Shown: piece by piece, positions 2,151 to 54,722 of the stretch
How positions within the stretch are numbered: the stretch's first letter is position 1
How the letters are laid out: each line of letters begins with the position of its first letter
NCBI GenBank assembly: GCA_017499595.2
Contig: CM039001.1
Span: 3,844,001 to 3,908,000 of the forward strand
Source of the DNA: Psilocybe cubensis
Lineage: Eukaryota
Length of the DNA stretch: 64,000 nucleotides
Direction of reading: 5' to 3'
The notes under the pieces: model-generated
Told to the model about the DNA's origin: nothing
What the model saw: the letters and a program-made list of their open reading frames with translations, nothing else
Databases searched by the model: none
Translations under genes and position numbers: made by a program

Positions 2151-3848
2151 CCTATCAGCGCCCAAGTCATCACCGGTACCAGTGTAATTCGATATAACTG
2201 AACGAACGCCCTTCTGATCCTCAATCTGACTGTAATAAGCACGATATCTTCGTTGTTAGCATATAAATGTGCATGAATATGATATCGTCTGTCTCACGGA
2301 CCTTTGATGGGACCGGGGGCGGTAGATCATCAGTCGTGGCTTGATCATGATTTCCAGTCCTAAAGGAAACCTGATATATCTATGTGTCAGTCAAAGTGAT
2401 TTAGACTGTTCGAAGACTTACTGATATGGGAACACTGTTGCTAAATTGAATCATCGTACTGATGGGTGCTTCTTGATCTCGATGGCGGGCATGTATGGTA
2501 GGCCGAGCGTTGAGGCTGAACATCAGAACAGCATTTAATGCTATATTTTGTCAAGGGAATGACCACGTACGATGCCAGAAGGGAGTTGGAGTAGACTAGG
2601 TCTTTCTGTGAGCACAAATGAAATTTCTGTAGTCCAAGGCGGCTTACTTTTAGCGAGAAGGATGTACAAGCCAAACCAGATCACTTAGACGTCCAATATT
2701 AGGCATCAATATGGAAGCCGCCAGACGAATGATTTACTATCACCCATAGCTTGAAACTGAATTGGAACAGATGAGATTCTGTGTAATTTTTGGAGACCTA
2801 AATTCTACTGTACCAAGATTATAACGGCCATGGATGTCAGGCTGGTTGTAGTGGGAACATCAGAAAGGGTAGAACGATTAATAAGAAGTAAAATTTATGT
2901 ACCTTGTGATGAGACCAGTCTCTGCCAATGTAGTAAAATTCATGGAGTTAATAGTGGTAGCATCAAATAAAAAATAGCCTTTACGGAGCGACCAGCGAAC
3001 GAGGCGATTGATAACTTCAGTAGTGCTGCGGACCATTTTCTTCAGTGAATATCGGAGGTATATTTTTCACGGGCTTACGAGGTGTGATTCATCGGGGATG
3101 AGAGTTTTCGTAGGTGAAAGAGCATGAGTCCAGCTATGAGGACGTCGGCAGCTCCACCACAAGCAAGGGATGCGGTAATCAGCCAGCTGAACGTAAAAAC
3201 AAACATGAGACCATTCTCGTTCTTCGGGACATCCATGAAGCTTTCCACTGTGAGGACAATACCTCCAATAAACCTCAAAAGAGAAAGTCCAAGGCAGGCT
3301 ACGCTGGGAAATACCCTCGATGATAACCTGTAAATCCGGTACGAAAAGAAAGACTAAGACATGTCAGTCCCATACCATTCGGGGGCCTTTGACGCATGAG
3401 CACTCGCCTGTACCACAACCGTGACTAATGTTTCCAGTGCGACAGTGGTGGAAAGAGGGTAAGAATTGGGCTGCGCAACCTTGAATCTGGTCACTGTATC
3501 GTAATAGATAGTTTGTGCTGCAGTAAATGAGTGAGATGATTCCAAAAACCTGTAGAATTTGAATTAATATTGAACGAAACGGTGCATTTGATACTTGACA
3601 TTCTTACACTAGAGAAACAACCTGGACACATAGAAAATGATGTTAATTAAATCCACGCACTGAGAAAGGATTATAACATGTACCAATGTCTTGAGTTTCC
3701 AATTGTCCCCATTCGTGCTGAAATACGCGTATGCTTGAGATAGGAATATGCCGAATAGAATTAGACTTAGGAACGTTGTAATTTGTATTGCGCCGAGGTT
3801 CACATTCGATTCCAAACGAAACGTAGAGGGTTGGATGTCTCTGACCAT
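2151..3848 (-). CDS. Multi-pass membrane protein, DUF6534-like basidiomycete family (3' end approximate)
   Basis: Exon ORFs NLGAIQITTFLSLILFGIFLSQAYAYF and WLITASLACGGAADVLIAGLMLFHL match the typical pattern of this family. Paralog at 57.7-59.2 kb. Confidence 0.75.
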
Positions 3849-4120
3849 GCCGGGTGTCAGTTATTAGTGTATACAAGTCCTGCTTGATGAAGGCTACTGG
3901 GTGATGATAAATACCTCAAAGGAGACCGTTAGATATAACCACCTCAGATATCAGTTTGTAATATTATCCCTTGCATTCTAATCAAGATCGTTGATTGGCA
4001 GATTTGAAGCAGCGGTGTACCATGACCACAAACATTGTTGTACTTTAAGGACGCCCACTGGTGGGGTATGTCGCCGTGTTCATGGGCGTGAGAATGCCGA
4101 TCCTCCGAACAGGTTGGACC

Positions 4121-4482
4121 CAGGGGGCACCCACCAGAGCTTACCGAGAAAACAACCCCTCCCTTGAGGTCAAGGGAGTGGCTGTGTTGCCGTGGGGGCA
4201 ATCACCACAACGTGATGGCAGTGTGACCTAGTGAAAGAGGTATATAACAAAGACATTAGTACTGTTTGTCGAGAATCCTTGATAAATACGACATAGTTTA
4301 GTATCCAGAACATGTAAAACTGTGTTAGATATGTCTACACTAGGTCCTTCCTCTCTTTTGAGACGTCACCCCACAGATCAGTAATGGTGACATTAGTGTC
4401 CCTCAGCCTTTGCCGCCCCGGCAACACAGCCACTCCCTTGGGAGGGGTTGTTTTCTCGGTAAGCTCCGGTGGGTGCCCCCTG
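4121..4482. mobile_element. Non-autonomous hAT-like MITE (362 bp)
   Basis: Imperfect ~75-bp TIRs begin CAGGGGGCACCCACC and end GGTGGGTGCCCCCTG. 8-bp direct repeat GTTGGACC at 4113-4120 and 4483-4490. Confidence 0.85.
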
Positions 4483-4537
4483 GTTGGACCTAAAAATGAC
4501 TGGAAATAAGGCCTCACCTCCTGGGAATTAAACTTTA

Positions 4538-4553
4538 GAGTCTGTCCGGTAAC
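4538..4553. mobile_element. Left tip of a PIF/Harbinger-like MITE split by the giant element
   Basis: GAGTCTGTCCGGTAAC is the reverse complement of GTTACCGGACAGACTC at 55412-55427. TTA lies at 4535-4537 and at 55428-55430. Confidence 0.85.
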
Positions 4554-4571
4554 CACTGCGGGCTCCGATAC

Positions 4572-4955
4572 ATGTTTGATGTCAAACATCGTCAATCAAA
4601 CACATATTATGTAAGAAGACGATGTTTGATGTCAAACATAAGTTGTGTTTGCTGACAAACAAGCATCAAACATAAGTTATGTTTGATAGGCATGTGATAT
4701 CAAACACAACGTATGTTTGACGCCTGTTTGTCAAAGAACACGGGCTTGACAGAAAATCTGTCAAGTTCGCTGTAAGATAACAAACGTACATTGTGTTTGA
4801 TAAATAGTGTTTGATTCCAAATATAACTCCTGTTTGATAATTTGTGCATGAAATCATCCGTATATTCTGTATGTTATCGACCATAAACATCAAACATAAG
4901 TTGTGTAAGAAATCAAACATAATATCTGTTTGAAATCAAACAGATTGTCAAACAG
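4572..4955. repeat. Subterminal TGTTTGA/TCAAACA repeats in both orientations (mirror 54318-54701)
   Basis: More than 15 copies, including palindromes ATGTTTGATGTCAAACAT. Such subterminal repeats are typical of CACTA elements. Confidence 0.85.
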
Positions 4956-5580
4956 ACATCGACACGCTCATCGTGCCGCTCAGCGCGCGCCTCCTCGCGC
5001 GATCAGCGCGCGCTTGACGCGCGATCGGCGCGCGTTGAGCGACACGCCCAGCGATTTTACGGCTATTTTGGCGTCTCGGTGATAAGCGACACACCTCACC
5101 AACGCTACTTAGGCGCTTGTGTATTCAGCGACGAGAACACGCTCTTCATTCAATAACGCTGTATCAGTGACGCATGTTTATTCAGCGAGAAAAAACGTAT
5201 TTTCGAGTGAAATATATGTATTTTTGGGGCTCGGGTGTGTCCTACTACCATACACATAAATTGACAAATGCTACACAGTCAAAGCTGCTTTTCTCCCTTC
5301 TTATTTCTAGAACCTGAGTCTCTATTTCACTGTAGTAGCAATGTATATACTCACATCAATGTATTTTATTCGTTTGCCATCGTTTGCCATTGCCTTCTAT
5401 GAATTGATGTCTCTCAGAACAACTTTCTCGCAGTCTCTTATCACTCACCACACTCCCACTCACTCACCACACTCACTCACACTCACTCACCACACTCACC
5501 ACACTCGCTCTCACTCGCTCAAACACATTCATTCATCGTCCTCGCTCATCACGCCCTCTATCAACATCGATATTCGTACC

Positions 5581-6124
5581 ATGTCCACAATAGTCTCCAA
5601 CATCTTTTCCACCATCGTTTCCTTCGTCAACGGCATCAAATACGGATTCGCGTCGGGATGCGAGATCGTGGAGTGGTTATGCACGTACGGAGGGCCCGCC
5701 TTCGGGGCGATAGCTCGCTACATCAACAAAAATAGCGAAGCGCCAGTTGTTCTGCGAAATCGTAGCGGTATGCCAGTGAGTATTTGTAGCTTTGAACAGC
5801 GTCTTACCGCTCCTTTCAGGAGGAAAGTTGATCAGCGACATGGAGGCTCAACACTCACCAGCCAACGACGCCGATTTCGAGGAACTCATCCGCGTTCGCC
5901 AGGAGATTAAAACCCTGAAAAAAATTCTCGACAATCGAAGCGCACGTACTCGGCCTGGTACATCGGAAGCGCACGAAATTCAGCTCGACCGCTTCGAACT
6001 TGAGCGCAAGAAAGTTCTCAACGATATTGCGATCGAGGCCCAAATACGTGCCACCTACCCTGCGCGAGCCCTGTATCTCGCAATGTGCGAGACATACGAT
6101 GTCGCTCCTGTCCGCACCGACTAG
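5581..6124 (+). CDS. TIR-encoded two-exon protein of unknown function (163 aa)
   Basis: ATG at 5581. A GT-AG intron at 5768-5819 joins MSTIVSNIF...LRNRS in frame to GGKLISDMEAQ...VRTD*. CACT-rich leader upstream and AATAAA near 6311. Confidence 0.7.
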
Positions 6125-6807
6125 GCGCCCCGGCGGGTTTTTCTTGTTGTTATCTTTTCTTCATTTTCTTGTTGCTTTCTTGTTGCTTTCTTGTTGCTTT
6201 CGGTTTATCGCTATCGCTTCGTATTATTGTACATATATCCCTGAATTTTACCATTTGATTCGCTATATTTGTATCATACTCATTGAAGACTCATAATCTC
6301 ATTTCTGAATAATAAAACTCCTTAACATTCGCGGACATCTGTGGCCTATGTTATTTCATGAAGCTTGAAACAACATTTTTTTTATTACCAAACAAGCGTC
6401 GTCAGCACCTTTAGAGGCAAATTAACGCGCGTTTGCCGTTTGGATACCTGCTGCACCGGCACCTGCTGACTCAGTCCTGCCCTTGTCCCTGCTGCAGCTG
6501 ACTCTGACTCTGTACCATGCGTATCGACGAGCTGCGCGACTGCGACGGCGCCGTGTTTGTCTCGTACCCTTCGCCATCCGTGCGGTCCGCGTCCGTCTGC
6601 GGCTTCTGGTAGGTATCCTGCTCCTGCTCGAGATCCTCCTCTGTGAACTCTCCCAGTACGGGTTCCGTGTCCAGGAAGGTATCCTATTGAAAAAAAAAGA
6701 CTGTCAATGTCAATAAAAACACGCACATAGAGAAAGAAGTAAAAAAAAGAAAAGGAAAAAAAAAGAGATAAAACACGCACCATCACCAAAAACAAATTCT
6801 TCTTATC

Positions 6808-7885
6808 ATGGAAACTCCACTCACAGCGGTCCTAACAGAAATCACACCACGCATGTCGTCAACACAAGCAACTCAGCAAGAAAGAGACGTCAATCTTACA
6901 GATGTTCTCCGGGGGCCACTACAATGCCAAAGAATTGAGCGTCTGCGGATGGGGCGAGAATGGATGCAGGACAATGGGCTAGCTATGGAACGTTTGGTAT
7001 CAGTTACGCATGCCAGGAAAGCAAGACGCATCAGGCTCCGATTTCGGGTGTATGCGGATGCGCAGGACTTCAGGGCATACGCAAACAGCAGAGCGGCGAT
7101 GACGGGTTCCACACATCGGGCACTGATAGAAACAAACAGCGCCAGATTCAGCGTAGCCTCCTGGAACTGCAACGGAGGACTCGCGGCATCAATCCATACG
7201 CCAATGTATAGGGATCTCGTACTATCTAATGATGTTACCTTCTTCCAGGAAACACACATGGCGCCAGGGCAAGAGGATATTCTGGATCTACCTCGCGGTT
7301 TTCATCCAGTGGCACGATCGCGACCATGGCGGCACCCCCTGGGCGGCGTCACTGTAATTATACGGGACACTGTAAAATATAGAATATGCGACGAGATCAT
7401 GCACCCAGATATACTGGTCCTTGAGCTCCCATCCCTAATCCTAATCTGCTCGTATCTTGTGCCAGAGAACTCCAGATGGGAATCTTGGACGCATGTGGAC
7501 CCTAAGACATGGCTGGGGGAGGCTATCGAATATTTGTGTCTTGCGATCCAAGGCATACATGATTATAGGCGACCTGAACGCGCGTATAGGCCTGCAACAA
7601 GCAGCGGGATCGCACTTAGTACGAGTGTCTCCAGATAATACCTGCATTGCTAGAGGGAATCGCCTACTGGAAATCATGGGGCAGAATTCTCTGCATGTCG
7701 TGAATGGGACACCAATCGACCGAACGCCGTTCCCACAGTGGACCTCCAGTCAGGCCAACGGAGGCCGCTCTGTCATTGACTACATCATCGTCTCGGAAGA
7801 CGCGCTCCTGTCGTTGGAAGCCATGGAGATAACATGGGTTGGAGGAAGAGTGGATGACCATGCAGGGATACATGTGGAGATGAGA
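6808..7885 (+). pseudogene. Non-LTR retrotransposon (LINE) apurinic-like endonuclease fragment, frameshifted (mirror 51388-52465, -)
   Basis: EEP motifs SWNCNG, FFQETH, GGV, IIGDLNAR, SVIDYIIVS and DDH are split over two frames, with the shift near 7540. No RT domain follows. Confidence 0.85.
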
Positions 7886-8715
7886 TCTTCTCTCACTCTT
7901 GGGCTGATCGTCTCAATAACGCCGCTCACGCGTTCATAAACCGCGAACACGATCGCCTGCCCGGGTGCCACGCGCAGCACGCGGGGGTGATGCCCTTGTA
8001 GAATGACCGCACGCCCTCCATCTTCCACATATCTGCCGCGATCGCGAATATGCGCTGGAAGGAGGATTGGCCTGGAGTTGCTTTGGCTTTTTGTAGACCT
8101 GATATAATTGATTTGAGTAAGAGAGGCTAAGAAAGTGTAGTTAAAAAGGGACGTACGAGTTTTGATAGTGTCTATTGGTGCATTTGAGAACGGACCCATA
8201 GCTCCAGAGATAAGACCAATCATCATGTGTTGGTAGGATGGTAGCTCGACCAAGTCTGGCTGGTACTTATGCGCGAGCTTCTTGATTTCTTGGTACGCGG
8301 TGAAGTTGGCACCTAAGGTGGACACACAAGCCTTAAGAAAGGCGTTCTTCGGCTATTCACGAATGAAGACGTACCCTGATTCGTAGCTTGTCTCAGTGGC
8401 GTCAAAGAGACACCACGATACAATGTCGAGATTCCTTCCTCACGAATGATGGTGTACACAGCATGACCAGCATTACGGTACCGAGGCGCTTCAAGAGGAT
8501 CAGCCAATGAATGTTGTTGAGCTTGCAGAGGAATCTTCACCACTTCCATGGGCGTCACGATGGCAACAGCTTCCGTCACTCCAGCCCCAAGACCGGCTAT
8601 ACGCAAGTAATTAAAAGATGACATCAGCTCAACACCTTCGCGGCAAGAGAAAAGAATTACATACCAATGAAGATATTCCCAATGCTCGTCTTCCCTGTTT
8701 GCTTATCGGCAAGCC
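7885..8715 (-). pseudogene. Captured fragment of a mitochondrial succinate-fumarate carrier (SFC1/ACR1-like), introns retained (mirror 50558-51388, +)
   Basis: AGLGAGVTEAVAIVTPMEVVKI, RQATNQGANFTAY, GPFSNAPIDTIKTR, RVAPGQAIVFAVYE. Three GT-AG introns. N-terminus missing. Frameshift at GITP/RVLR. Confidence 0.9.
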
Positions 8716-8999
8716 AACGATGGTACATCTCCTCTCAACTTTTTAATAACCCTTGCAGTATGTTTTTCTCTGTCTATTATTTGGCAATACAATTAACACA
8801 CGATAGACTTCGACGATGCCAGCGGGAACATCTGTGTCTATATCCTCCCCAAGTGGGATGATCAATCTTGACAAGGTACGGGGAATTCAGGCTCCAAGAA
8901 ATGCTGAGGAAACGACACGACCCAGACATCGAGGAATGGTATGCCATTGACTACGAAAGTCTTGCAAATTACCCGCCTTAACTCAAGCATAGGTTTGGA

Positions 9000-9510
9000 C
9001 GTCTTCGGCTGAAGGGCCCATGGGCTCATCCGATGCAGCGAGGTTGCACTGGTGGAACGCGCGCACCTGGTCAAGGGCATGCACCGACGACAGTGTGCAG
9101 AACTCCACGGTTGTGGAAGACCACAAAGTCATCTTCGCGCCAGTCGTGTGGATACACCAGCTGCTCCAAAATTCAGCTTCGAACAAAAAAGCGCAGACAA
9201 TATGCGAACTTACAGAAGGAGCGATCGCAGGTCATTGCTACGACTCCTGGAACAGGTGCAGATCAAGTGTCTGCGACGAATACTGGGTTTGGGTCCGAGG
9301 TCGATAACGGCAGTTCTTTATTCTGAAACAGGAGTACTTCCCATTAAATATAGGCGGTTAATCCTAGTACTACGTTACGACATCCCTCCCCGGAGAGCGA
9401 TAGTTAGGATGGTTGAGAGACCTAGTCCGGGCACTGGATCTACTTCCCTGCCCGGCGCAAGTAACAGCAAGAGAACTGTGGGAATCGGAGGGCACTGCGA
9501 AGGTGATCAA
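9000..9510 (+). pseudogene. LINE ORF2 C-terminal (post-RT) fragment (mirror ~49763-50273, -)
   Basis: LEQVQIKCLRRILGLGPRSITAVLYSETGVLPIKYRRLILVLRY resembles the region downstream of RT in fungal LINEs. Confidence 0.7.
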
Positions 9511-11765
9511 CGCATCTACGCCCGCTCCTCCCGATCCGATCCCGATCCTCCCGCTCCAGCATCCGCAACCGCAACAGCATCCGCATCAGTGTCCGTATAC
9601 ACACTAATCACATTCTCTGCCTACACATATACACATTTCTTAATCAGATAAAATCAAACTCCCACAACGAAAGAGAAGTGACGTACCATCTTCATCTTCA
9701 TCCCCACCTTCCCCTTCATCCGTCGAATTCGAATGCGAAACGGGAAACACCAGAAACAGAGCTCAAAGCAGGCGATGGCGCTCTCTCCCCTGCACCTCCT
9801 TGTTCGGAACCCTCACCCGAACCCTCAACGACCCAACTACGACTCACAGACCCGTTGTCCGATACAAACGACGACGATATCTCCTGCGTGTCGTGCGAGA
9901 TGGAAATAGACTCTGACTCTGTCCCTGAAAGCGAAAGGTACGGCGAGTGCAAAGAAACAGGCGAACGGGTACAACGACGCGGAATGCAACGACGCGGCGC
10001 GCGGCACGAACACGGGTGCGGGCGGCGAGAGTGTGAACGGTGCGGGCGCTGGTGTGGGTGATGGTGAGCAGGTGCGTGAAGCGTTTGATGAGGCTGGGGC
10101 TGAGCCTGAGCCTGTTGTGGAGGCGTTTGACGAGGCTGGGGCGGAGGTGGAGTGGAAGGGTACGGTGCAAGTGGGTACACACTCCTCTTATTCGCCGGTG
10201 CTTGTGCTGGTGTATTCCCATTCCCAATCCCCAACACCTGCTGCTCCCTATTCCCTTTACCCACCCGCGACCGTGCCTGCAACTCCCGCTTCACCGCATC
10301 CACATCCATCGCGCGCAGCACCTGCTCCGAGAGCGTCGGGAGCAGCGCGAGGAGGATGTTGCGATGTCTTCGTGTGTTTGGGTGAATTGAGTGCGGAGGC
10401 TTGTAGGTTGTAGTAAGTTAAATAAGTGTAGGGGAAGGGAGGGAAAAGAGGAAAAGGGGTGTTAGTTGTGTTTAGAAAATTAGAGATAAGAATGGGAATA
10501 GAATAGGATAAAAAAGAATGGGATACAATAAAAGCAAAGAAAATAAAAGTAAAAGCAAAAGCCCATCCGACGGTTCTTCTATCCATCCTGCTATCCGTCC
10601 TGAACCATCTATCCACCCGTATCAATCAACCCGTACATGCATGCATCGGCCAAAACGATCTATGCGAAGATGAAGACGAAGGCGAAGGATACACCCTCGA
10701 ACAAACAACAACATGAACAAGAACCAGAACCGTGCTCGTTCAAAGTACCTCTGCAAGATGGATGGAATAGAGAACCTCCGAAACTGGAATCTGTCCATTC
10801 CACCGAAATCTATCCAAATAAACCCACAAAAAAAACAATCCAAAAAACATACTCTCTAAAAACCACACTCCAAAAACAAAAAACCCCAAAAACCAGAAAA
10901 GAAAGAAAGAAAGAAATAAAAAAATAAAATAAAAAAACACTCACACATCCCTCGCCTGTTCCTCGGCGTCCATCTTCTGCCTCACCTCATCAAGCCGCAC
11001 GCGCATGAACCCGCGCGCGTCCTATAGGCCGCCGATGATGGTGGTCGTTTTGAGTGCATTATTCAACTTTGCCAGATGTTGCTGACGTTGCGAGCTAACA
11101 TTCTCCACCTCCATTTCATCCTCTTCGATAATACCGCCGGCCACACGACCATGAGCGTCCTCGCCTTCCGGGTGATCAATAGTCCTCTTTCTCTCTGTCT
11201 GTCGAGATGACCCCATCCCTATCAAGCGCGTCAGTGGACAACGCAGTCGACGCTAGATTCGTCATGGACGGCGCGGCAGACCACCCATTCACATCCCCTC
11301 CAATACTCCCACTAACACTCCAACTAAGCGTCATCGCACCAAACGAGCCAAACGGATCCGGGCCCTACTTGGCAGGAGCCATCACAAGCGGTGTATTCCC
11401 CCCTTTCTTCCCGATCCCAATGCCCATACTCATCCCCATCCCCTTGCCACCCCCAGGCGACGCCAGCCGCGAAAGCGTGTTCAAAAACGTCGACTTTCGT
11501 TTCTTCTCCTTCCCCTTCTTCTGCTGCGCGAGGGGCAGACCGGCGGGGTCGATGGGCAGCGATGGGATTTTGAGGCCCGGGTGCGTACTGCGCAGTTTCA
11601 CGTCGAGTTCGATGAGCTCCGCGGCGGTGCGTATGAGCGTGAGGTTGTGTGTGGGTGCTGGTGTGTGCAGTGTTGTGTTTGTTATCACAGGTGATGGTGG
11701 TCGGTGCATGGGAGTAGGTGCGCGGCGGCCGTGGTGGTGGTGGTAGAGATAGAAAGATCGGCGCG

Positions 11766-11807
11766 GGTGGTGGTGGTGGTGGTGGTGGTGGTGGTGGTGG
11801 TGGTGGT
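11766..11807. repeat. (GGT)n/(CCA)n microsatellite, 12 nt longer in the right arm (~47454-47507)
   Basis: Direct reading. The poly-Pro ORF is 233 aa on the left and 237 aa on the right. Confidence 0.95.
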
Positions 11808-12429
11808 GAGAGTCGACGAGCGGGGGTTGGATTCGACGATGTCGGCAGCGTGGATAGCGACGCGGACGATGCAGCGGATGAAGACGACGACGATGACGTC
11901 GGTGTGGGCGGGACGAAGTGAATGGTTAAAGTAGACGCAGACATCATACAGTGGGGAAAACCAAAAGCGCCACGATGAGATGATGAGATGATGGGAGTGT
12001 ACAGGTTCGTGTCTAGTGCTTTCATTTCGTCTTGATTTCGTGTTTGGGTTTGGGTTTATAAGTCGGAATTCGAGTTTGTCTGGTGGGTGTTGTGTAAGAT
12101 ATGCTATGCTATGGTGTGATATGTGGTGTGTAACAGTGTAAGATGTTCAGAGCGTACTGCAAGTCGGTGTGAGGTAAGATGAGCTGAGGCGCTAGTGTCA
12201 GCGTCGGTGTAGGCGTAGGGTGTAACCGTAGAACACAAACTGGGTTGGCAAACCAAAAGCCAATGTGAAGGTCGATAGTCGATAAACGGTGTTGGTGTAG
12301 GTGTAAGTGGGCAGTGGGTATACCACGCCATTCTCCCCGCTTCAGATCGAAAGGCAAAGTCAAACAAAGAGTCAACAGTCGAATCGAAAACCCGCAAAAA
12401 GGGGTTGGTGGTGGTGGTAGCACCCCACT

Positions 12430-13425
12430 GCACAACTTTGCCTGGTCTTCCTCGTCGTCTTCGTCGTCTTTTTCTTCTTCGAAATGAGGCCGTCGGAGAG
12501 GATGTGGACGTCGATGTCTACGCCCGTTTCCATGCCCATGTCCCTCATTGTCGACTTCATCGTCTTCATGGAAATCGTCCTCATCATCCTCTGTATCGTC
12601 CGATTCGCTGGGACTTACTAACCCAGGCTCGTCCCCGTCCTGCGCCACTGTAACATGTTGGTTGAATTTTTTCTTCCTCGCTTGCTCTAATTCAAATTGT
12701 ACATCCTCCTGGTCCGTTTCTCCCTGGTTTTCATCGCGTACCGTATGATGTGGGTTGAAGCTTTTGGCATTCATCTTTTTCTTCCTATCCCTAAGAGCGG
12801 CTATTTGGGCGTCTGCTCGCCATCTGTTGGGGTCCACGGCGATGTTTGTGTCCAGATTCTGACGCATTGCCTCCATACGTAGAGCCTCGATCTGACGCTC
12901 ATTGAAAGCGGCGCGTTCCCTCCACGCTCAAGGTTCAGGCTGGCAGGGTCGAGCGGCGCAAAATGGCGGACGAGCCTGGGTTGATGTTGCAGTTGTGGTT
13001 GCGGTGGAGGCGCGTGAACGGGGGGCAGATCGGGGAGCTCTTCCTCTTCGAATACGCCCAGGCGAGCATTCTGCGACATCCATTCACGGAGGAGGAAGAC
13101 GGCAACGAAGATGAGTACAATGAGCGATGCGATGATCAGGCCGGTGAATATGTCTGCCGAGGGCGCTAACCATGCCGGATGTGAAGAAACCTTGGAGAAA
13201 AAATGCTGTTGGATGGCGGCCCAGGGGCTTCGTAGCGAATTCTATCGATAGAGGAAGCTATCAGAAGTGGATATTAGATTGAGATCCCGGATGAGTACGT
13301 ACGCGGATTCTCCCATGGAAAAGACGTCCACACTGTTATGCATGGCAATATTCCTAGCCAGATTGTAGCAACAGCTATAATACGAACAACAGGGAGAAAA
13401 ATAATTGTTGTAAAAGCCGCCGAAT
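12430..13425 (-). pseudogene. Captured fragment of a Doa10/MARCH6-like ER E3 ubiquitin ligase gene (mirror 45836-46831, +)
   Basis: RRLLQQLFFSLLF, IWLGILP, FSMGES and ADIFTGLIIASLIVLIFVAVFLLREWMSQNARLGVFEE, followed by an acidic loop. Stops and frameshifts present; no RING-CH domain. Confidence 0.7.
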
Positions 13426-13510
13426 TACCCGTCTAACGTCACTGTCCGCAGTCCCTAAGCCTAAGTCGTAAGTAAGAGGGAAAGGATACAAAAAATACCC
13501 TCGAAAAATC

Positions 13511-13713
13511 TCGCATGCCCGAGGCATGGTGTTCATGGTATCATCTGGAATACAACTTCCAGATCGCAGTTTGATGTAAGCCAATTGGACAGGAATGCTG
13601 CTTAAGCCGTCCGTTCGAGTAGTATTTGGCCAGATCACTGAGGAGACCATACGCCAACCTCACTAGAGAATCAGAGCGTTCCTCGTCGAAGGCAGCGGTG
13701 AACAAGCTCCAAC
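13511..13713 (-). pseudogene. Captured C-terminal fragment of importin-beta (Kap95-like) (mirror 45548-45750, +)
   Basis: LELVHRC / DEERSDSLVRLAYGLLSDLAKYYSNGRLKQ / DTMNTMPRACE in shifting frames resembles the final HEAT repeat of fungal importin beta-1. Confidence 0.65.
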
Positions 13714-14461
13714 TTAAGTAGTCGAGCACGCCAAAGATGTCGCTGAGCGTCCTAGTGAACTGCGTCGTGATGGGCACGACTTTTGCCTGGCGAGGTGACG
13801 CACATGGACGACAATGCTCTCGTCTTTTCTGTGCCGCTCCGCCGCGAAACGGAGGTGAAACAGTTGTAGAAGTAGCCTAAGTGAAGTGGCAGCCAACCAG
13901 AGATGTCAGTAGGAATCGTTAGTGTTCGGGATAGGAGATGGGCTATACTATGTAAGTTACTACAGAAAATTAGGTAGACAGAACGAAACATACCTGTGTA
14001 GAACAAGAGGAAGGAAATGGTGAAACGAACGACTTGAGTGAGAATCGTGTGCGTCTAATCGCATGGTTAGCAAACGGCGGGTACACTGGAGTTGCGACTT
14101 ACCAGACATGCTTCGAAACTTTTGCGATGTCTTGTTCGCTGACCTGTATCTGCGCTGAATGACTGACCCAATATACAACACTGTGCAGAAAATTGTGTTA
14201 CTTACGGCGAGCGTAGAGATCTCATACATGCTTAACATCTGTGTTGGCACTTCGATTACACCTCACGCACAATATCATTCGGTCCCCATTTCGCTCCCTG
14301 TAGTAGTATTTGTATTATTTACATGGTACACTACGCTAGACTGCCTACATGGATAGCAGCGCTACTCGGTCTATATGTGCTACTTCACCCGCTAGATGAG
14401 CATGGTTGGAACAGAAGAAGAAGAAAGCGTGAGAATATGGCCAGCACGCCAACAAGTACCG

Positions 14462-14544
14462 CAGAAGTTCGATGCCGCTCATGCCGTCGCCAAATTGGTG
14501 ATGCGCGTGATTGGTGGCACGGCATCAGCGGCATCAAACTTCTG
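14462..14544. repeat. 83-bp imperfect hairpin; copies at 16834-16916, 32368-32450, 41873-41955, 44717-44799; half-sites at 15844-15879 and 30369-30393
   Basis: CAGAAGTTCGATGCCGCTCATGCCGT ... ACGGCATCAGCGGCATCAAACTTCTG. Confidence 0.9.
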
Positions 14545-15288
14545 TCCTGTATCATGGCGATTTTGTGACGGTGTGACGCCTTTCCACCTCTCTCTCAACA
14601 CTCACTCCTATGAAGCACGTCGTACGTAGAGATGGTTCGCATACGAGCTTACTGTAGTAGTAGCACTTTAGTGTAGACTCTAATACCATAAACTTAGCTA
14701 GCTGCGTACTCTAGTAATACAATTTTAGTTCAAGTGACATAGACCCGGCTTGGAAGGGCAGAGGAAATAGTCGGGTGAGCGACACAGAACGAGGAGGAAC
14801 TACAATTCATTTGGATAGTGAATTACGCAGAAACATAGGTGCGAATAGTATTTGTATTTACTATCAGGCACAAAACACAAGCCAAAAACACATTCTACAG
14901 CACACCCGCCGCCTCTTCGCCTGCCAGACCCGTATTCGAGCGTCACAAACATAGGTGAGGAATCATCTTTGCTATTAGTGCAGGAAACATATTCTACAGC
15001 ACATGTGCCGCCTCATTGCTTTACAGACCTCACTTATTCAACGACGCACCCACCTACATTCAAGAATTGAACGTTGAATGCTGCCATAACTTTATGTTTT
15101 GTACGACGCTGCCTACTGTAAGCACCCGATCTGCGAGGTACCCTCTTTGCAGGTTGCCGTTTTAATTTGGATTTCACGATATCGGGACTTGTGTAGGATG
15201 TGCACATGGCTTCCGTCGACTCTCCTGCTAATGCAACTATATGCAAGTCTATTCTCATCTGACACGAGTAACGTAAATATCTCATTTA

Positions 15289-15315
15289 CCCCCCCCCCCC
15301 CCCCCCCCCCCCCCC
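15289..15315. repeat. Poly-C tract (27 nt)
   Basis: Direct reading. Confidence 0.95.
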
Positions 15316-16442
15316 GTTGCTCTATTGAACCCCACAATTGGGATGACAGCCAGCGCTTTCACATGTTATTTACAACATCCTGATTTAATCAGGGGCTGCT
15401 AGAATTTTCGCTCATTCCGCACCTCGACTCGAGCCATATTTTTGAGAAGTAAGTTCAACCTTACACGCGTGTAGGCAACGCTCGTGTCCTTTCTGCCTCC
15501 GTACTAGTCTCTTGTTTGGTAAAGACCAATATGCTTTCTTACCACCTACATGAGATTATGAATCACCAGTTTCAGCAACGTTAAAAACAGTCGAGGTGTA
15601 ATGAGAGCACCGCAAATAAGCTGCCTTATACTGAGAGCGAGCTAGGGTATGTCTAATTGCACAGTTAACAAACGTTTGACGGTTTTTATTCGCTAAAACT
15701 ACATCTGCGCTAGATGATTGACCAGATATATCTCCCCGGATCCGAATCTGTGTTGGCACACTGTTTTATTTTCCATTGCTCCTCTTGCGTGTTATCATTC
15801 TGTCCTCGTTTCATAGGGACTACATCTAGTATGTAGACTACATGTTCGACGCCGCTCATGCCGTCGCTTGATTGGTGATTGCGCCAGCATCACATGTCGC
15901 CCAATTATCTTATCTTATCGCTGTCAGAATAGACAAAACAGCAAGAGATCCCTTAAGACTGCCGGCGCAGCGCGATGGCAGGCGCAGAGCGAGACCTGTA
16001 CTCGGATAATCCAAGGTGGCTTTACAATACGGATTGGTTTAACGGGCAGCCTATGATCAGATCAGAGTGGTGAAAGTGTCAAAATGAGTGAAGGCATTAA
16101 CAGCCGTGATTCATACGAGTTCTGAGAACACACCCCCGAGATTGTGTGGTTCAGCAAAGAAACAAAAAGATAATTGAGATATCTGGATATGAAGAGCTGT
16201 TTGAATTGCACCAATGCTAACGGAAGGCCACAACATATGTGCTTGTGGGACTCGATGAGAGCCATGAGCAATTCACATAAGATAAACACAGTCCGGCTCG
16301 ATATGGTGCAATCCAATTAAAACAGCACCTGCAAAGGGGGTACCTCCTAGACAGAATGCTTATCGTAAGAAGCATCGCAGAAAAAAATATGGCAGCGTTC
16401 TGTGAGTGTGGCGTCGTTTATTAAGTGACGTCTGTCAGGCGA

Positions 16443-17090
16443 CGAGGCGGCGCATATAGAATATGTTTTCCATACTAGTGATAGCAAGATGATTCTCACC
16501 TATGTTTCTGTGTAATTATGTGACCTCGAATGAAGGACTGGTGGGAGAAGAGGCGGCGCGTATGCTAGAACATGTTTTTGGTTTATCTTCTCTGTACTGA
16601 TAGCAAAAGATGATTCTCACCTATGCTTTTGCATAATTCACCAGCACATGAATTGTCATGTTCACCGGTCTTTGAATTAAAGTTATTATGGTGTTAAAAT
16701 CTACGTTAAAGTATCCCTACCGCTAAGCTAAATATTTGAATCGAATTTACATTCGACCCGCCGCATTGGAGAGTGGGGGTTGTCAGAGAGGAAGAAAGGC
16801 GTCACACCGTCACAAAATCGCCCTGATACAGCACAGAAGTTCGATGCCGCTCAAGCCGTCGCAACATTGGTGATGTGCGTGATTGGTGGCACGGCATGAG
16901 CGGCATCGAACTTCTGCGGTACATGTTGGAGAGCTGGACATATTCCCACGGTTTTCCCTTCTTTCCTGCGCACCATCCTGGCCACGACGTTCGGCGGGGC
17001 TGGTGAACCTGAACCTGTCGAAGCAGCACGTTGAGATTGAGTAGCGTAGCAATTTATGTACATGGACTAGCGTAGTGTGCAATGTATATA
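16443..17090 (-). repeat. Diverged, inverted copy of the internal hairpin module (cf. 14330-15015)
   Basis: Shares GAGGCGGC, GATGATTC(C)TCACCTATG, GAAAGGCGTCACACCGTCACAAAATCGCC and the hairpin, with many substitutions and indels. Confidence 0.8.
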
Positions 17091-21114: not shown

Positions 21115-24100
21115 TCAAAGAATTTGCCTATCTACAGGTCGGAGTCGGGATAAAGATACACATACAGCGACGTCTCTATCTTCCCATGGGATGATACATT
21201 TGGCAAAGTGTCCTTCTACAGCTGAAAAAGGAAGGACTTCGAGGATATCTTGGACGTCGGTTCCCCATAGTTTGGCACGAAAATGAACCCACGGGATATA
21301 AGGATCGTATTTGACCCCCGCTTCTTGGTATCGATTAACCACAAACCATATATCATCCCTAAGTACTTTTTTAGGAAACTTGAGGACATTCTTGATACGG
21401 TAGGGCACATTTGACGCATTGAGGACCCCGCTATTGCCTTCATGTACGTCCCAAGATGTATAAGATATCCGACCAACGCGATAACGGTTTGTATACATTG
21501 CCCGCGCGGGCACGGTTGTCACACCATACCGTAAAAATGCCCGAGTAATGTCCATCTTTAACACCACCGCACGTCGATCATCGTATGGGATGGCTTCTTC
21601 TTGAAGATCTTCTTCGCTTTCCTCGTCGTCTGTCTCAGTGTCATCGTCGGCCTCAGCATTTGCGACATCGATTGTCTCTGCTTCTCCTGCGAGTATGTAC
21701 TGTCCTTGGGGCATCACCAACTTGCGAAAGATCGGCCAACAGTCCCGAATAGCTTGTGGACATCCTGGTCTTTGAAAAATTGCCATAAGTTTGGACCTTC
21801 TGTGCCAGGAAGTCGCAATTGTTTCCTCGTACTCGCCTACTATAGATCAGTAACCATGAAAGAGCAGGCAACAGGTAAAGCAAATTACCTTGCTTGTAAT
21901 TTGTGGGAATTCTTTGCAGCATCCCAATCATACGTTCGAAGGGAAACGTCCACCAACCATGAACAGGCCCATATTCGATGATAAACTCCCTCATATGCAT
22001 AGCCATATGATGATTAGGAACACACTGGTAGCTTGGAAACAGCCTTGAAAGCTCGGAACGGTATTGTACCATCAAATTCAGGTATTCATTGGCCATAGCT
22101 GGTGATGCGACCCGGGAAGTGATGACAGATATGGCCTCAAAAAGAAGCATCGTGAGGCGCAAAAGTTCTCGACGTGTTTGGGCAGGTTTCGAATGGTCAA
22201 TTCCCGACCATATTCGGATGAGGGTAACTGGGATGTAAAGTGCTGCCGCAATGCGCCATTGGTCTGATTTGAGTTTTCCACTCTTTGCGGACATCGACCA
22301 GGGTAACGACGAGACCCATGACGGTTTTACCATAGCTGCAATGTCTCGTCGGATGGATTTCATGTCTTCTGCTGTAAGTATCTTTCCCTGCTTGCCATCC
22401 ACTTCTGAAGTAGCCTGGCTTGACTGTGACTGGCCGAAATTTTTAGTTGTTAGAAGAATTGAAAAATTTAACAACGTACGGATCTTTCTTTACGCTATTC
22501 ACCGCGTATTAAACTATCAGATTGATGTTGAGGTAACGACGATGCAGACGTACCCATTGAACAAGCATTTGGGCCAGATCTTCTTTCTTGACTCGCATCA
22601 TACCATTTAACGTGTCCCGGCCACGATTGGTGATGGTAGAGGGTATACACCCCAGATGTTTACCAACAAAAACAAGGGCTTCTGCTGCGGTCTTCTTTGC
22701 CAACTCGTTTGCTACGTCGGCATCTTCGATTGGAAGAGGCTCTGCCAACCATTTTCTGATGATGCGTATTCCTTTTTGACCAGACTCTGAGGTTGGCAAA
22801 GGATTACTTTCATTGCCCTCAATGTTTTGTAATATAACGCTATCGCTCGATATAGGTGTTTGTTGTTTCTTCTTCTGCTTGGGTAAATCAGAACCGTCAC
22901 CGAGAATGTGCTGAAAATGCTCTTTGATGAGTCCAAGAAAAAGGTTATGCATCGGGTCTACAACAAGGCTCATGGTTGGCCGATAATAGGGCAATCGATG
23001 AAATTCTGACGTGCGCAATCCGGATTTGTCGAAAAGGCTTGCAGCGGCCTTTTCGGAGGGGGCTGCCTGGTATTTCCAGGCACCATCTCGACATTCGTCA
23101 TCGGTGCGCCATGTCCATTTTTCATAATCGAAGTTGTTGAATGTATGCACAGTTTTACTACACCAGCACATCGAACAGAAATATTCCTGATTGTATGAAG
23201 AAAATCCACCAGCCTTCCGTGCTGCAGGAAGATCGGCGATGATTGCAAGAAGAGCACAAAGAATAATGCGCCCCATAGCGTAAAGAGCGGTGCGCGTAAA
23301 AAAAACACCCACCCAAAACAGCAGGAAAGTGTCAACAATAGGGCGGAAGTATGGGTTTGCTGCTTCTAGACTGGGTTCATTGGGACCCGGAATAATACCC
23401 GCGAGAAAGATGTTTTCAGGTTTATATCGAGTAGTTATGGGAAGGTTGAGGCATGTTAATGCGATAACTCCAATTGAAATCTTCTTTCCAGCCGTAAGAT
23501 TACGCAAAGGATTAAAGAAATCAAAGCCGAGTGAAAATAGATAACGTCCAGTAGTTTCATTTCCGGATACACCGAAAAATTTCTTATCGCATCCCTTGAA
23601 GTTACGGATGCTGGAAGACTGAAAAATATCGTCCATGCGCCCATTTTCTTGAACAGGTTCGAACGTTTTCTTCCAAGCACCGTCCATTGCTTCCTCGTAT
23701 CCTCGACGCGATAACATGCCACCAAGCCAGTCCTGGAAATCGAATGATAGGAAGGGTTTGATGGGTACATTAATGGTCTTATTGCTGTATCTCTTTGGCC
23801 GGACAAGAAGTTCCCCACAACGATTACCGAACTTCCGGGCATTGCATCGTTCGCGATAGGTAGAAATATCGTCCTCTAGGGTTGGCTTGTAGATTTCATT
23901 GCACTTTGGACAAGCGGCATACACGATGAACTTCGAATCAATGTCAAAACGCTTGATTGCCGCTCGAACGTCTAGAGGAAACGAACGAAGAACTTGCTCG
24001 AGCCAACGAGGAAGGATTTTGTCGACAAAGATAGCCTCTCCCGTTCTTTGAGCGATATATTCGCACATGGAAAAGACAAAATAGCACCCACGTCGAGGAA

Positions 24101-24948
24101 ACCTCAATATAGCGTAGCAAGAAACAACCATAAGGTTGATCATCTGCATCGCGTCAATTATCCATGGGGGTAGCCAAGGCATACTGTATGCATAGGGAAG
24201 GAAGGGAAGGAAGTGGTGCCCTAGGGTCGATAGTTGATAAATAGTTCATCGAATACAAAGTGAAAAATAAACATGCTCGCTCACTTGAATCGTATAAATT
24301 AGGTACGCTATCCTGAATAGAAACTCGCTGGCGAGATCTCTTCGTTTGCCTCTCCTTCCATGTTGCCTCTACACGGTCTACATCTTCATTAAGTCGCTCG
24401 ATATTTTGGTGTGCATCATGTCGCAAAGATTTGATCGAGGCTTCCTTGCGCAAAGGACCGGATTTCGTAAAGTCTAAATCTCTCGATGCGTTGGAATTAA
24501 GAGCTCGTACTTCATGGCAAAGTTGAATTGCCTTATCAATTTCCCCATTGCTGAAATATTTCTCTCCTGAGATGTCAATGGTGTTGATTTGTTGGGCACG
24601 AAGTCTGGTATTGTCTAGAATATCTGCAATCAGAGCCACGATTTTTTTCTTCTGTTCGTGCTTGTACTGCACTTCCTTTTCCTTGATCGTCTCGGTGTCC
24701 GGGTCCTGAACAGATAAAAGTTGCATTGCTTTCTCCAAGGTGGTTTCGACCTTCTCCATGGCCCTTTGCTGCTCAAGGATCGCCCGTGATTCAAGATTCC
24801 TCTTCATCTGACCCACGCTTTCCTCGTGTTGGTGCTTTTTATATGTAGATGGCGACAATTGAACACCTGGCTGTCCTGTGACAGGATCGCGTTTCGCGCC
24901 GCACCCATGCACAGTGCACAGGCAAAACTTGGCTTTCCAAACCGGCAT
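21115..24948 (-). CDS. CACTA/EnSpm transposase (Transposase_21/Tnp2 family), apparently intact, 1202 aa
   Basis: Exons 24948-24285, 24220-22554, a 15-nt exon near 22490, 22429-21889 and 21836-21115 total 3609 nt in frame. Motifs FSLGFDFFNP, CLNLP..RYKPENIFLAGIIPGP.EP, DLPAARK, CSMCWC, VDPMHNLFLG, PNHH...H, FPFERMIGMLQ. Confidence 0.92.
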
Positions 24949-26944: not shown

Positions 26945-29900
26945 TCACAGTATCTTTTTCTTGTACTGGTCTTTTAACTGAGTCATAACATTGGAGTTGA
27001 GGTCTCTGTCTTTCTTGGACTCGGGAACTGAACACAGGAAATCCGTGCTGAGTATAAATCGCTCGCCAGTTAAAACGTCTACACGATCTTTAGATCGGGT
27101 GACTACAGCGACCAAGACAGTTGGATTATCCGAGGTGCCTTCATGATGAATGCGACGAACGAATTTCCCGCAATGTTCCCCCTTGATAACCACTAGAGGC
27201 CCATTGTCATGTATTCGATTTGCATACTTCGGAGTGACCCAAGCGGGGTCCACCATAGTCCATGAACTGTACTTTTTGCACCTGAGTACGAGGTTGTTTG
27301 CATCCCAAACCGTTGAGGCGACTAATGTTTTATTGCTGAACTGTCCGCCGTTGACTACCACATTCAGGCTGATGTCCACCAGTTTGGGGTTTAAGAGAAC
27401 ATGTTCGCACACAGAAGAGGAAGTCGTATGACAGTTTGTTTCAGATGAGGAGGAAACAGATGTAGAGACGTCTGATAACGCAAGACTTGTTGGCGAATGA
27501 GCAGTTGGGTCAGGTGTCCTTGAGGAGGGGTCCCAAGCTGGAGTGATAGATTGCGGTGTACCGATGGGTGTCCTTGAGGAAGGATCCCAGGCTGGAGTTG
27601 CAGTGGGTTCTGAGTACATCGGTGTGCCGCTCGCTGACGCAATCGTTTGCGGTACGCCAGGGAGAACGCGGACGTGCTTCATGGAAGACTTAGGTATAGG
27701 ACGGAAAAATTTTGGCCCAGGATCAAGGAAAAGAACGAGCTCATTGAACGTCCTTGCGTACAAGTTAGACAGAGGGTACATGCAATGACAACACACTTAC
27801 GAAAGTTCGACGACATCGTCATAGTCCACAACGATTGTTTGGAACGGTGCAAAGGGATTAAAACGGGTGAGTTGAATAACGAGCTGCAGTCCGGCGTTGT
27901 CTGTATGATGAAGGACGTCTTTGATTCGTCCAGTCTCACCCTTGCGTGGGTGAAGATGCTTCTGTATAATGACCTCTAAACCAGTCCATGGGTGTCTTAA
28001 AAACTTGGTGTGGACTGGGTCTGACTCCGATAATAATGTCACATCGACAAGAGGTAGGGGCTCAGTAAATGAAGTGTCCAAGAGATTGACGTGTACCGCA
28101 AAATGCTGTTGAAAGGTATAGCCACGTTAAGAGAAAAACCGGTGAATATGTCAAGCTGCAAATTTACTCACTTCCACAATCTCAACCTTGTTATCATCTC
28201 CTACCCCAGAATTAAACTGGTTAGATGCTGCTGTTGTACTGACCACAGCGCCCTGGTTGTACGACTCCTGAGCTGCTGTTGGTTTTCCTACTCCTGTGAC
28301 ACACGAACTCCCTCCCGGCATCGACATTTCTTCTTCATCTAACGTTGCTGCTGATTCATCCAAAGTTAGAGCGATATCCGAATGCACCATTATACCCCCT
28401 GGCATCATTTGCGCTTCTACCGCCGTCCCCAGATCTGTCTCCGCCGAACCTTTTCTCAGATCATCGTTCCCTGTCGGCACGGGATATTGTTCTTTTCCGT
28501 TGGTGGGCGTCGAAGATGTTTCAGCATTTGTTTCCACAATGGAAATGCGACCATGCACCGAACTTTTCGTTATTAGTGCATGGTCTCCATGGATTCCAAC
28601 GACCCAACCTCTGTGATCGAAATAGGGGCCGCTCACAACTCGAACGAATTGCCCGATTTTTGGTGACTTGAGAATGTCTAGCCATGTTCCCCTAACACTG
28701 TAGCGGATTTCACGTTCACCTTCGATTGTTGATTGTTCTGCTTCAACGTCGTATGTGTCCAGCTTTTTCAGCACTGCAGGTTCCCACTTTGCAGACCGAT
28801 TCGCAACGTCGGGTGTACGAAAAAGAACCTCCTCTTCCAGTCCTAAGCACCATTCCCGAGGACGTGGCATACGCGCTCGCATTATGTCGGGATGATTGGT
28901 GCTCCTAAACATGGAGAAGTGGGAATACGGAATATCCATGACGGAATTTGCGATGGAGGTATAGTCGAAATCCTTTTCCAACAGTCCATGGTCAAACTTG
29001 AGAAGTCCAAGCGTGTATGATCCATCCGCATTGCGAATAATGGGAGTAGAAATGAGTTTGCGGGCTTCTTCAGGGTCGAAAAGTTTTGCTGGGGGTACTA
29101 GTACCGATGACTTTCTCTTTTGTGACTTTGCAGATTGCGAATTTAGCCGAGGAATGAGAAGAACCTGAGCGCCCCAGGAAAAAGTCGCTGAGATCAGTCC
29201 AACGTCTCCTTTGTATATGCCTTTCTTAACCAAAACCCAGGTCCCAACCTCAAAATCCTTCTTGACATCCCTCATCGTAAGAAGTTCGTGCTGATGGTTC
29301 CGATCCACTATTTCGCGCTTGACTCCAAGGTGGTTACGAAGGATTCCGGGCGTGGACAAGAGCAGATTCACGAGGGCTGGATCCATGATACCTTCAACGT
29401 AGATACTTCCGCGTATAGAGCCGCGAGTAAATGCGGAACGAATATGGTGGATCTCCCTTGCGGTCTGGAGAAGGGATAGGACAGCTGCATCCTCAGAGCC
29501 GATCTGCAAAAGTTGATAGAAAAATAATCAAGGGATAGGTATTCAGACTTACCCGACATCCAACCCTCCAGAGAGGATAGTCATTCTCAAGCGGAAGACG
29601 CGCAATCTTCTCCTGGAGCATGGTTATCCTATCTTCCTCCTCCAAACGTATAACCGGACGTGGTTGACGAGGGCCCTTTGCTTGAGCCTCCAGGCGAGCC
29701 AGTAGTTGGTTAAATGAATCCTCCTCGCTGTCATCTTCTGGCCTATGGAACGCCATAGAGCCTATGTGATCTTCCCCGTCCACTTCCGCTCCGTCGTTAA
29801 TGAAGGCATCTGTAAAGACAGTCAAATCAAGTCTATCGCAACATTCTGAACAGCTCGCCTTCAAGGTCCCGTTCTGCAGACGTAAGCTGCTCATCGTCAG

Positions 29901-39739: not shown

Positions 39740-39772
39740 TCACCCTCTACCGTCATTCAGTCCCGCCAAACT

Positions 39773-54719: not shown

Positions 54720-54722
54720 AAC

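Follow-up and report, generated by a model that had tools for sequence, protein, structure and literature searches.

Pieces of host genes in the long inverted arms of a 50-kb EnSpm/CACTA transposon of Psilocybe cubensis

Introduction

Capture of gene fragments by cut-and-paste transposons has been described mainly in plants. Pack-TYPE elements are only a few kb long, the terminal inverted repeats (TIRs) of CACTA transposons usually comprise tens of bases, and Mutator transposons have 9-bp target duplications with TIRs of ca. 200 bp. We analysed a 64,000-nucleotide stretch of the mushroom Psilocybe cubensis (GenBank assembly GCA_017499595.2, contig CM039001.1, positions 3,844,001 to 3,908,000), hereafter termed the window, to whose first letter all coordinates refer. 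It contains a 50,166-bp EnSpm/CACTA transposon (4554–54719) of a nearly identical family, which carries a patchwork of gene pieces in both of its 10.6-kb inverted arms. The original prediction, made from the sequence alone, had described these arms as a Pack-CACTA-like mosaic of captured host-gene fragments; the mosaic and its presence in both arms were borne out by Pfam, tblastn and the alignment of the arms.

The element shares with the Pack-CACTA or Pack-TYPE elements of plants, such as Arabidopsis Pack-CACTA1a, the CACTA ends and, enclosed by them, unlinked host-gene fragments mobilised as a unit (PMC6379663). Its fragments likewise stem from more than one locus, namely those of SFC1, TauD, Pex3 and Doa10, with separate diverged contigs for SFC1, TauD and Doa10. 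However, Pack-TYPE elements are defined as non-autonomous (PMC6379663) and the present element contains a Transposase_21 open reading frame (ORF); the predicted likeness to Pack-CACTA thus applies to the content but not to the strict definition. In further contrast to the plant elements it is fungal and 50 kb long, and its fragments lie inside a 10.6-kb inverted duplication, each twice per element. Transduplicated intron-bearing fragments and chimeric gene models are shared with the Pack-MULEs of rice and the Pack-TIR elements of animals (PMC8277862), which belong to a different superfamily. Such a chimera is represented by the gene model JR316_0003488, which joins importin-like and Doa10 pieces.

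In Mu killer of maize, part of MuDR is present as an inverted duplication which silences the transposon family and is itself rearranged and immobile. An inverted transposon duplication with the potential for double-stranded RNA is common to both systems, but the duplication described here forms the ends of a mobile element, and RNA derived from it was not observed. Oversized EnSpm/CACTA elements are known from Chondrus crispus; they measure 16–20 kb, carry 4–5 ORFs (as cited in PMC6431247) and are described with extra ORFs, the cited portion making no mention of long arms or patchworks. With 50 kb and 10.6-kb mosaic arms the present element is ca. 2.5 times larger and stretches the known CACTA range, the largest size mentioned in that portion being 16–20 kb. 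Fungal EnSpm transposons are classified by 5′-CAC..GTG-3′ ends and 3-bp target duplications, both present here, whereas the ends of PlavakaA (TGT..ACA, 2 bp) and PlavakaB (CATCA..TGATG, 2–3 bp) do not fit (PMC12730594). In Teratorn of medaka, a piggyBac transposase is fused with a herpesvirus and extra internal TIRs occur at repeat borders (PMC6431247), while the inner borders of the present arms lack a terminus. Our literature search, with subscription journals and supplements outside its coverage, returned no description of the family or of CACTA arms in the kb range, and transposons of P. cubensis were mentioned only in passing.

Results

Identity and ends of the element

The element starts with CACTGCGGG at 4554 and terminates at 54719 in the reverse complement of this sequence, in agreement with the CAC(TA/TG)..GTG termini of EnSpm/CACTA transposons, and is flanked by AAC on either side, a 3-bp match expected by chance in 1 of 64 cases. 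With up to three mismatches allowed, the terminal 21-mer has two matches in the window, both at the outer ends, at an expectation of 0. The first 400 bp of either arm are dense in TCAAACA and ATGTTTGATGTCAAACAT motifs and thus correspond to the subterminal repeats of the superfamily: at a window mean of 0.34 matches per 500 bp, 17 of the 44 TCAAACA matches fall within 4501–5000 and another 17 within 54001–55000, and a subterminal 18-mer is confined to the outer 400 bp of each arm. Moreover, a putative Tnp2-type DDE transposase (Pfam Transposase_21) is predicted from the ORF 22512–24245. Taken together, ends, target duplication, subterminal repeats and transposase identify the 50,166-bp unit as an EnSpm/CACTA element.

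Pfam was scanned with 28 ORFs of at least 130 amino acids (aa) outside the arms and with all 153 stop-to-stop ORFs of at least 40 aa in the left arm (78 minus, 75 plus strand), so that intron-split genes could be missed. Neither set contains a match to the tyrosine-recombinase "captain" (DUF3435) of Starships, no TET/JBP gene was found among the 28 non-arm ORFs, and the 153 arm ORFs contain no Helitron, Rep or helicase domain. The arm ORFs match database proteins named Psilocybe cubensis at 98–100%.

The mosaic of gene pieces

The arm stretch 6385–13920 is a patchwork of pieces of SFC1, a TauD/TfdA-family dioxygenase, peroxin-3 (Pex3), Doa10 and, probably, importin-beta on the minus strand, a piece of a LINE (a non-long-terminal-repeat retrotransposon) on the plus strand, and several unnamed pieces (Table 1). 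They are dead pseudogene fragments. Real proteins were mapped back onto the window by tblastn, and public sequencing runs were compared with it; of the 18 runs listed, 14 from five studies contain at least part of the stretch, and four were aligned to 3000–16000 at 80% likeness. Run X15 consists of raw DNA reads, while X17, guessed to be RNA, bears the same species label as the runs containing the stretch.

The predicted SFC1-like and Doa10-like pieces were both recovered. The SFC1 piece is 78–91% identical to fungal succinate/fumarate carriers and spans approximately aa 80/95–314 of 319, the first repeat being missing; proline occurs where the homologues compared have VVKIRLQ and SLTALRQ, and 1 nt is gapped relative to the transcript contig. 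With the P. cubensis Doa10 protein, tblastn matched aa 19–94, 51–185 (63.7% identity) and 188–282 (86.3%), which places aa 19–282 at 13414–12640. A later acidic segment of Doa10 directly adjoins at 12640–12452, as judged from our own reading of the sequences and a separate RNA contig, tblastn giving no match there; by the same reading of its parent position, ca. 400 aa of the parent are absent between the two parts. A PDB search with the Doa10 piece gave two chance photosystem matches.

Two of the four stretches listed as unidentified in the original prediction, 9680–10410 and 10945–11020, belong to peroxin-3. In the tblastn search aa 13–48, 49–62 and 65–94 of Pholiota Pex3, as well as aa 135–174 of another Pex3, map to 9734–11054, and the piece, which an X17 contig covers at 10979–11022, comprises roughly the first quarter to third of its gene. 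Compared with 1.84 billion representatives the Pex3-like ORF found six matches, of which one is the element's own gene model and the others are weak; the assignment to Pex3 is based on Pfam and tblastn. An X17 contig joint, 9711>11423, considered as an insertion of Pex3 into an earlier captured piece, was discarded, one side of the joint being only 21 nt long. The other two stretches, 6480–6685 and 11365–11709, remain unnamed and are matched by diverged X17 contigs. For the piece at 6480–6700 no Pfam match was obtained among the left-arm ORFs of at least 40 aa; at 6510 the letters of the diverged contigs occur in ca. 12% of the X15 reads and further along in fewer.

The original prediction had missed the TauD piece, for which a PDB search of the ORF 8986–9231 gave no match, and the LINE piece. 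It had placed all recognisable host pieces on the minus strand, which holds for the five named ones (5/5), whereas the LINE piece lies on the plus strand; one contig joint, 8757>8807, has plus-strand GT..AG ends and may mark a single host piece of that orientation. The probable importin-beta ORF matches importin-beta in PDB entries 4xri/4xrk (E 0.052, chain aa 798–832 of 882), and an X17 contig with three differences covers 13633–13642. The two halves of the LINE endonuclease are encoded in successive ORFs and frames (Exo_endo_phos profile 1–86, then 124–206), both matches being just below the cut-offs; no X17 contig depth is present at 6906–7773 inside this piece, and no reverse transcriptase was found behind it by Pfam in the 75 plus-strand ORFs of the left arm. 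As LINE insertions usually retain the 3′ end, the stretch looks like a captured internal piece rather than a LINE insertion. A candidate reverse-transcriptase tail at 9172–9459 (+) was dropped: it has no Pfam match up to E 10, the ORF 9013–9648 has no PDB match, and its Atlas neighbours are unrelated and all below 0.9.

Intact parents and capture at the DNA level

X17 contributes 22 contigs which are distributed over the identity bands as 0/4/5/13, none of them being at least 99% alike. Their matches to the pieces range from 89.5 to 97.5% identity and, with a share of 0.94, the contigs continue into unlike sequence beyond the matched part. Three stretches of 58, 62 and 68 nt, bounded by GT..AG on the strand of the gene, are missing from the SFC1 contig and present in the element. 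The contig thus represents a spliced transcript and the element retains the introns, which places the capture at the DNA level, as foreseen in the original prediction; from a processed copy the introns would be absent.

Intact, expressed parent genes exist; an absence of parental loci, which would have refuted the original prediction, is countered by the diverged X17 contigs and by an intact P. cubensis Doa10 of 1702 aa, which is encoded on a 3.52-Mb contig, the gene models of the element being on contigs of other lengths. Parent-type letters were found in ca. 7–21% (mostly 11–13%) of the X15 reads at the sites summed, which corresponds to about eight arm copies for each copy of the parent. 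A tree was calculated from N-terminal regions of Doa10 (28 rows chosen from 120 listed matches, 419 columns); in it, the element piece is sister to P. cubensis Doa10 with SH-aLRT 100 and branch lengths of 0.33 (element) versus 0. The sister position, with all branch length on the element side, indicates that Doa10 was captured within the Psilocybe lineage and has evolved without constraint since. The pieces are all internal parts of their genes: approximately the first 80–95 aa of SFC1 are absent, TauD is represented by its last part and Doa10 by aa 19–282 plus the short later segment. Such partial genes, together with separate transcript contigs of differing depth which run into unlike sequence, rule out a single contiguous host locus, the outcome that would have turned the mosaic into a simple segmental duplication.

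Transcripts of the element copies were not detected among the 22 X17 contigs (0/22 at least 99% alike), and no RNA run is listed as containing the stretch. Run X10 yielded a few short, low-depth and mostly identical contigs, which we read as traces of P. cubensis and not as the version of a relative (runs X10–X14 contain small shares).

The inverted arms and their differences

Mirrored positions of the two arms add up to 59273 in the outer part and to 59261 inside the GGT array. Over 10,638 bp, base-by-base alignment revealed 11 substitutions, and at 11766–11808 the arms differ in length by 12 bases, (GGT)4; given this near-identity, every stop, frameshift and junction is common to both arms. 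The view that the lesions are identical and that one arm was copied from the other after capture is therefore upheld, with the qualification that the copying took place in an ancestor of the family and not at this locus (see below).

All 11 substitutions are transitions, and nine of them lie at CpG (to TpG or CpA), positions which account for 13% of the arm (binomial P 4.6e-7). This bias is the mark of 5-methylcytosine deamination, and the element is thus probably methylated; with regard to the arm differences, the signature also argues for genuine mutations in two physically distinct copies and against assembly noise. At 7023, 8502 and 8716 the right-arm base is present in every X15 read and in the X5 contig, which makes the left arm the mutated one at these sites. 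T occurs in both arms at 6028 and 11674 and their mirror positions, where C is found in ca. 94% and 100% of the X15 reads, respectively, and in the contigs of other runs covering each site; both are CpG to TpG changes, which might be due to conversion between the arms, to differences among strains or to a sub-lineage within the family.

The inner arm borders fall within repeat R, of which the element contains four copies. Neither the terminal 21-mer nor the subterminal 18-mer was found at these borders or in the interior by searching the window.

A multi-copy family

The summed X15 depth is ca. 31 in the left flank (3000–3867), ca. 310–370 over most of the mosaic and ca. 125–140 just inside the arm (15152–16000); it dips to 210–285 in a few mosaic bins, mostly low-complexity or repeat stretches. 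X5 contig depths were left out of the copy-number estimates. Per single-copy equivalent there are roughly 8–11 arm copies and 4 interiors, ratios that would be expected of two-armed elements plus a few shorter forms. At 4554, 801 X15 reads overhang into unlike flanks (agreement 0.38), the disagreement pointing to many insertion sites, and at 15191, 249 reads continue with an inner junction of the right-arm type (agreement 0.99).

Gene models of the mosaic are annotated on at least four contigs (4.19, 4.15, 3.13 and 4.68 Mb) of one P. cubensis assembly. The importin/Doa10 chimera is represented by JR316_0003488, 0005418, 0011931, 0010152 and 0000025, and the Pex3-like model by three contigs plus one more locus for a longer form. 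Five gene models of 373 aa differ from each other by one or two residues; over aa 125–373 one equals the right arm and two the left arm. As the mosaic is present at even depth in all arm copies, both it and the duplicated arm are older than the recent burst and belong to the ancestor of the family.

Variant relatives were also observed. At the terminus, 402 X15 reads leave the arm at 4634, after the first 80 bp, and 135 at 4956, after 400 bp, and continue in sequence unlike the arm on which they mutually agree; family members with the same ends and different insides are therefore present. The gene models P0250 (JR316_0000025) and P0247 join exons from 42200–42618 to repeat R and importin/Doa10 exons (13544–14174), which are 28 kb apart here, so that another copy must have the left arm fused to 42010–44014. 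Such a fusion would result from recombination between the direct repeats R at 13915–14598 and 41326–42009, and the predicted product would be a ca. 23-kb derivative without transposase, a true Pack-type form. In X15 the left flank 3868–4553 is covered at ca. four times the depth of single-copy sequence, and position 4315 is joined directly to 4554 in 15 reads; the element probably lies in or beside another repeat, other strains differing there by 238 bp.

Discussion

Consistent with these data we consider it probable (ca. 0.75) that 6385–13920 and its mirror are the passenger part of a long inverted terminal duplication in a multi-copy EnSpm/CACTA element of ca. 50 kb, a patchwork of DNA copied from unlinked host genes that are expressed, and from a LINE, by stepwise capture, followed by duplication of the arm and a burst. 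The pieces would have been taken up step by step, likely by template switching during the repair of excision gaps, one of the routes discussed for Pack-TYPE elements (PMC6379663). Short (ca. 100–1300 bp), intron-bearing pieces of many unlinked genes which abut in a cut-and-paste element fit such repeated switching, and the about fourfold spread of their divergence from the parents (ca. 2.5% to 10.5%) suggests several capture events. Subsequently, the mosaic-loaded end might have been duplicated in inverted orientation by a fold-back or strand-switch copy, the new junction falling into repeat R. The two-armed form would then have multiplied by cut-and-paste transposition to near-identical copies, whose arms may since have drifted apart only by deamination at methylated CpG.

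Several points weigh against this account or parts of it. CpG observed/expected in the mosaic is 1.0, without long-term CpG decay, which sits uneasily with the 9–10% divergence of some pieces if the element was always methylated. Random template switching does not account for the common orientation of all five named host pieces. The predicted importin-beta-like piece is probable, but its Pfam matches (22.6 and 21 versus 29.1 bits) and hence the assignment are sub-threshold, and the protein search with its ORF found no true importin among 256 candidates, which contained only two gene models of the element. Parents are known from transcript contigs, raw-read letters and the Doa10 protein, and the edges of the pieces are approximate. 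Finally, the presence of two arms in every copy is deduced from depth ratios and junction read counts rather than from single molecules.

Alternatively, two smaller Pack-type CACTA copies might have inserted in inverted orientation around an autonomous element and lost their inner ends, the outer ends mobilising the whole as a composite or macrotransposon. Outer ends of the same sequence over 10.6 kb would follow naturally, smaller relatives exist as judged from those sharing only the first 80 or ca. 400 bp of the terminus, a shorter derivative that lacks the interior is suggested by the P0250 and P0247 models, and the model for Arabidopsis Pack-CACTA uses neighbouring insertions with complementary end losses (PMC6379663). 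However, no trace of an inner terminus is left at the borders or in the interior, the inner borders lie inside a four-copy repeat, and a one-armed full copy was not seen, although the data could not have shown one; we regard a composite origin as unlikely. Uptake of the mosaic once and en bloc, as cargo of a Helitron-like element or from a pseudogene-rich junk locus, would account for abutting pieces that include a LINE fragment, and a single polar source could explain why the five named host pieces share one strand. The wide divergence range speaks for several capture times instead, the 153 arm ORFs scanned lack the domains of a Helitron, and the X15 depth over the mosaic is uniform, the loose ends listed adding no further class of junction (478 more lie beyond the listing), which renders a single uptake improbable.

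Near-identical 10-kb inverted repeats are known to cause assembly errors, so that an artefact has to be considered, as does a common segmental duplication of host DNA in inverted orientation, unrelated to transposition. Such an origin is extremely improbable in view of the 11 arm differences with their biological signature (nine at CpG), the microsatellite length difference, the CACTG termini with a matching 3-bp duplication at the outer ends, the two types of inner junction in independent raw reads (those at 15191) and the database gene models which match each arm separately. A more far-reaching speculation, which we regard as quite unlikely, is that the element is an autonomous and currently active exon-shuffling machine, in which fold-back created 10.6-kb TIRs, each transposition spreads two inverted copies of housekeeping pieces, the named ones all directed outward on a single strand, and the arms are a source of small RNAs acting on the parents or the element. 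If so, transcription extending into the opposite arm from the interior or from flanking genes would produce sense and antisense RNA of the SFC1, PEX3, DOA10 and TauD pieces, and the arm small RNAs might act in trans on the parent genes or, like Mu killer, as a built-in self-limiter.

The near-identical copies in this mushroom should allow capture and arm formation to be traced by comparison of strains, and the CpG-biased arm divergence would offer a clean natural record of how methylation drives mutation in a young repeat. Arms of this kind are particularly prone to inversion, deletion and mis-assembly. In the annotation of P. cubensis, at least 12 "hypothetical protein" entries are read from dead fragments.

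Features of the window

Table 1. Coordinates of the element, its parts and the matching X17 contigs.
Feature	Position	Strand	Evidence or remarks
Whole EnSpm/CACTA element	4554–54719		ends CACTG..CAGTG; terminal 21-mer
Target site duplication AAC, 3 bp	left copy 4551–4553, right copy 54720–54722		sequence reading
Left inverted arm, 10,638 bp	4554–15191	+	window self-comparison; weaker identity continues to 15241
Right inverted arm, 10,650 bp	44070–54719	-	window self-comparison; mirror of mosaic ca. 45341–52888
Subterminal repeat zone, TCAAACA / ATGTTTGATGTCAAACAT motifs, both orientations	4554–4960		motif search
Putative transposase ORF, 578 aa stop to stop	22512–24245	-	Pfam Transposase_21 E 4.8e-9, 36.2 bits, cut-off 28.6
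Unnamed captured piece	6480–6700		X17 and X5 contigs, ca. 10 listed differences over 6510–6652
LINE endonuclease piece, frameshifted	6772–7936	+	Exo_endo_phos E 7.1e-5, Exo_endo_phos_2 E 3.5e-5
SFC1-like succinate/fumarate carrier piece	7886–8738	-	Pfam Mito_carr E 4.9e-11 and 4.9e-14 (two repeats)
TauD/TfdA-family dioxygenase C-terminal piece	8969–9169 (Pfam part 9074–9169)	-	TauD E 4.3e-6, 27.3 bits, cut-off 27, profile 227–253 of 267
Peroxin-3 N-terminal piece, broken by ca. 545 bp at 10402–10946	9734–11054	-	Pfam Peroxin-3 29.7 bits, cut-off 27.6
Unnamed pieces, partly low-complexity, incl. (GGT)14 array 11766–11808	11100–12451		X17 contigs at 11118, 11209–11464, 11428, 11817–12001; tandem repeat
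Doa10 piece, aa 19–282 + later acidic segment of 1702-aa parent	12452–13414	-	tblastn, tree, X17 contigs
Probable importin-beta C-terminal HEAT piece	13604–13750	-	Pfam TPR_IMB1 22.6 and 21 bits, below cut-off 29.1
Repeat R, inner arm end	13915–15241	+	self-BLAST; X15 depth ca. 2x arm
Repeat R, further copies	31667–32997, 41326–42009 (partial), 44015–45346	-, +, -	self-BLAST
X17 contig, 2144 nt (SFC1)	7886–8096, 8155–8310, 8373–8596		15 differences + 1 gap in 591 nt (97.5%)
X17 contig, 3337 nt (TauD)	8969–9160		5 differences + 2 gaps
X17 contig, 1194 nt (Doa10)	12639–13195		51 differences + 7 gaps in 557 nt (90.8%)
X17 contig, 3797 nt (Doa10)	12452–12640		15 differences + 12 gaps in 189 nt
X17 contig, 258 nt	11209–11464		27 differences in 256 (89.5%)
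Further X17 contigs	6510–6652, 8842–8917, 10979–11022, 11118, 11428, 11674–12001, 13633–13642		

The interior contains further repeats. A nested inverted repeat of ca. 1.4 kb (99% identical), partly made up of repeat R, is located at 31377–33732 and 40615–42009 and flanks 33733–40614, and 31377–32997 is a direct copy (99.3%) of 43725–45346; the element seems to undergo internal duplication readily in the vicinity of repeat R. An 83-nt unit, which from its sequence looks like a near-perfect hairpin, occurs five times, with four copies in repeat R and one in the interior (14462–14544, 16834–16916, 32368–32450, 41873–41955 and 44717–44799).

Two further open frames lie on the minus strand of the element. 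The one at 36314–38881 (856 aa) has internal direct repeats of 270–440 nt and a weak coiled-coil (Tropomyosin) Pfam match and may be cargo or an element-specific gene. The other, at 28154–29527 (458 aa), carries a KOW motif (Pfam E 1.2e-7) and could be a further captured gene or piece. Outside the element, a palindrome with 153-nt arms, 93% complementary and 40 nt apart, is found at 62837–63182.

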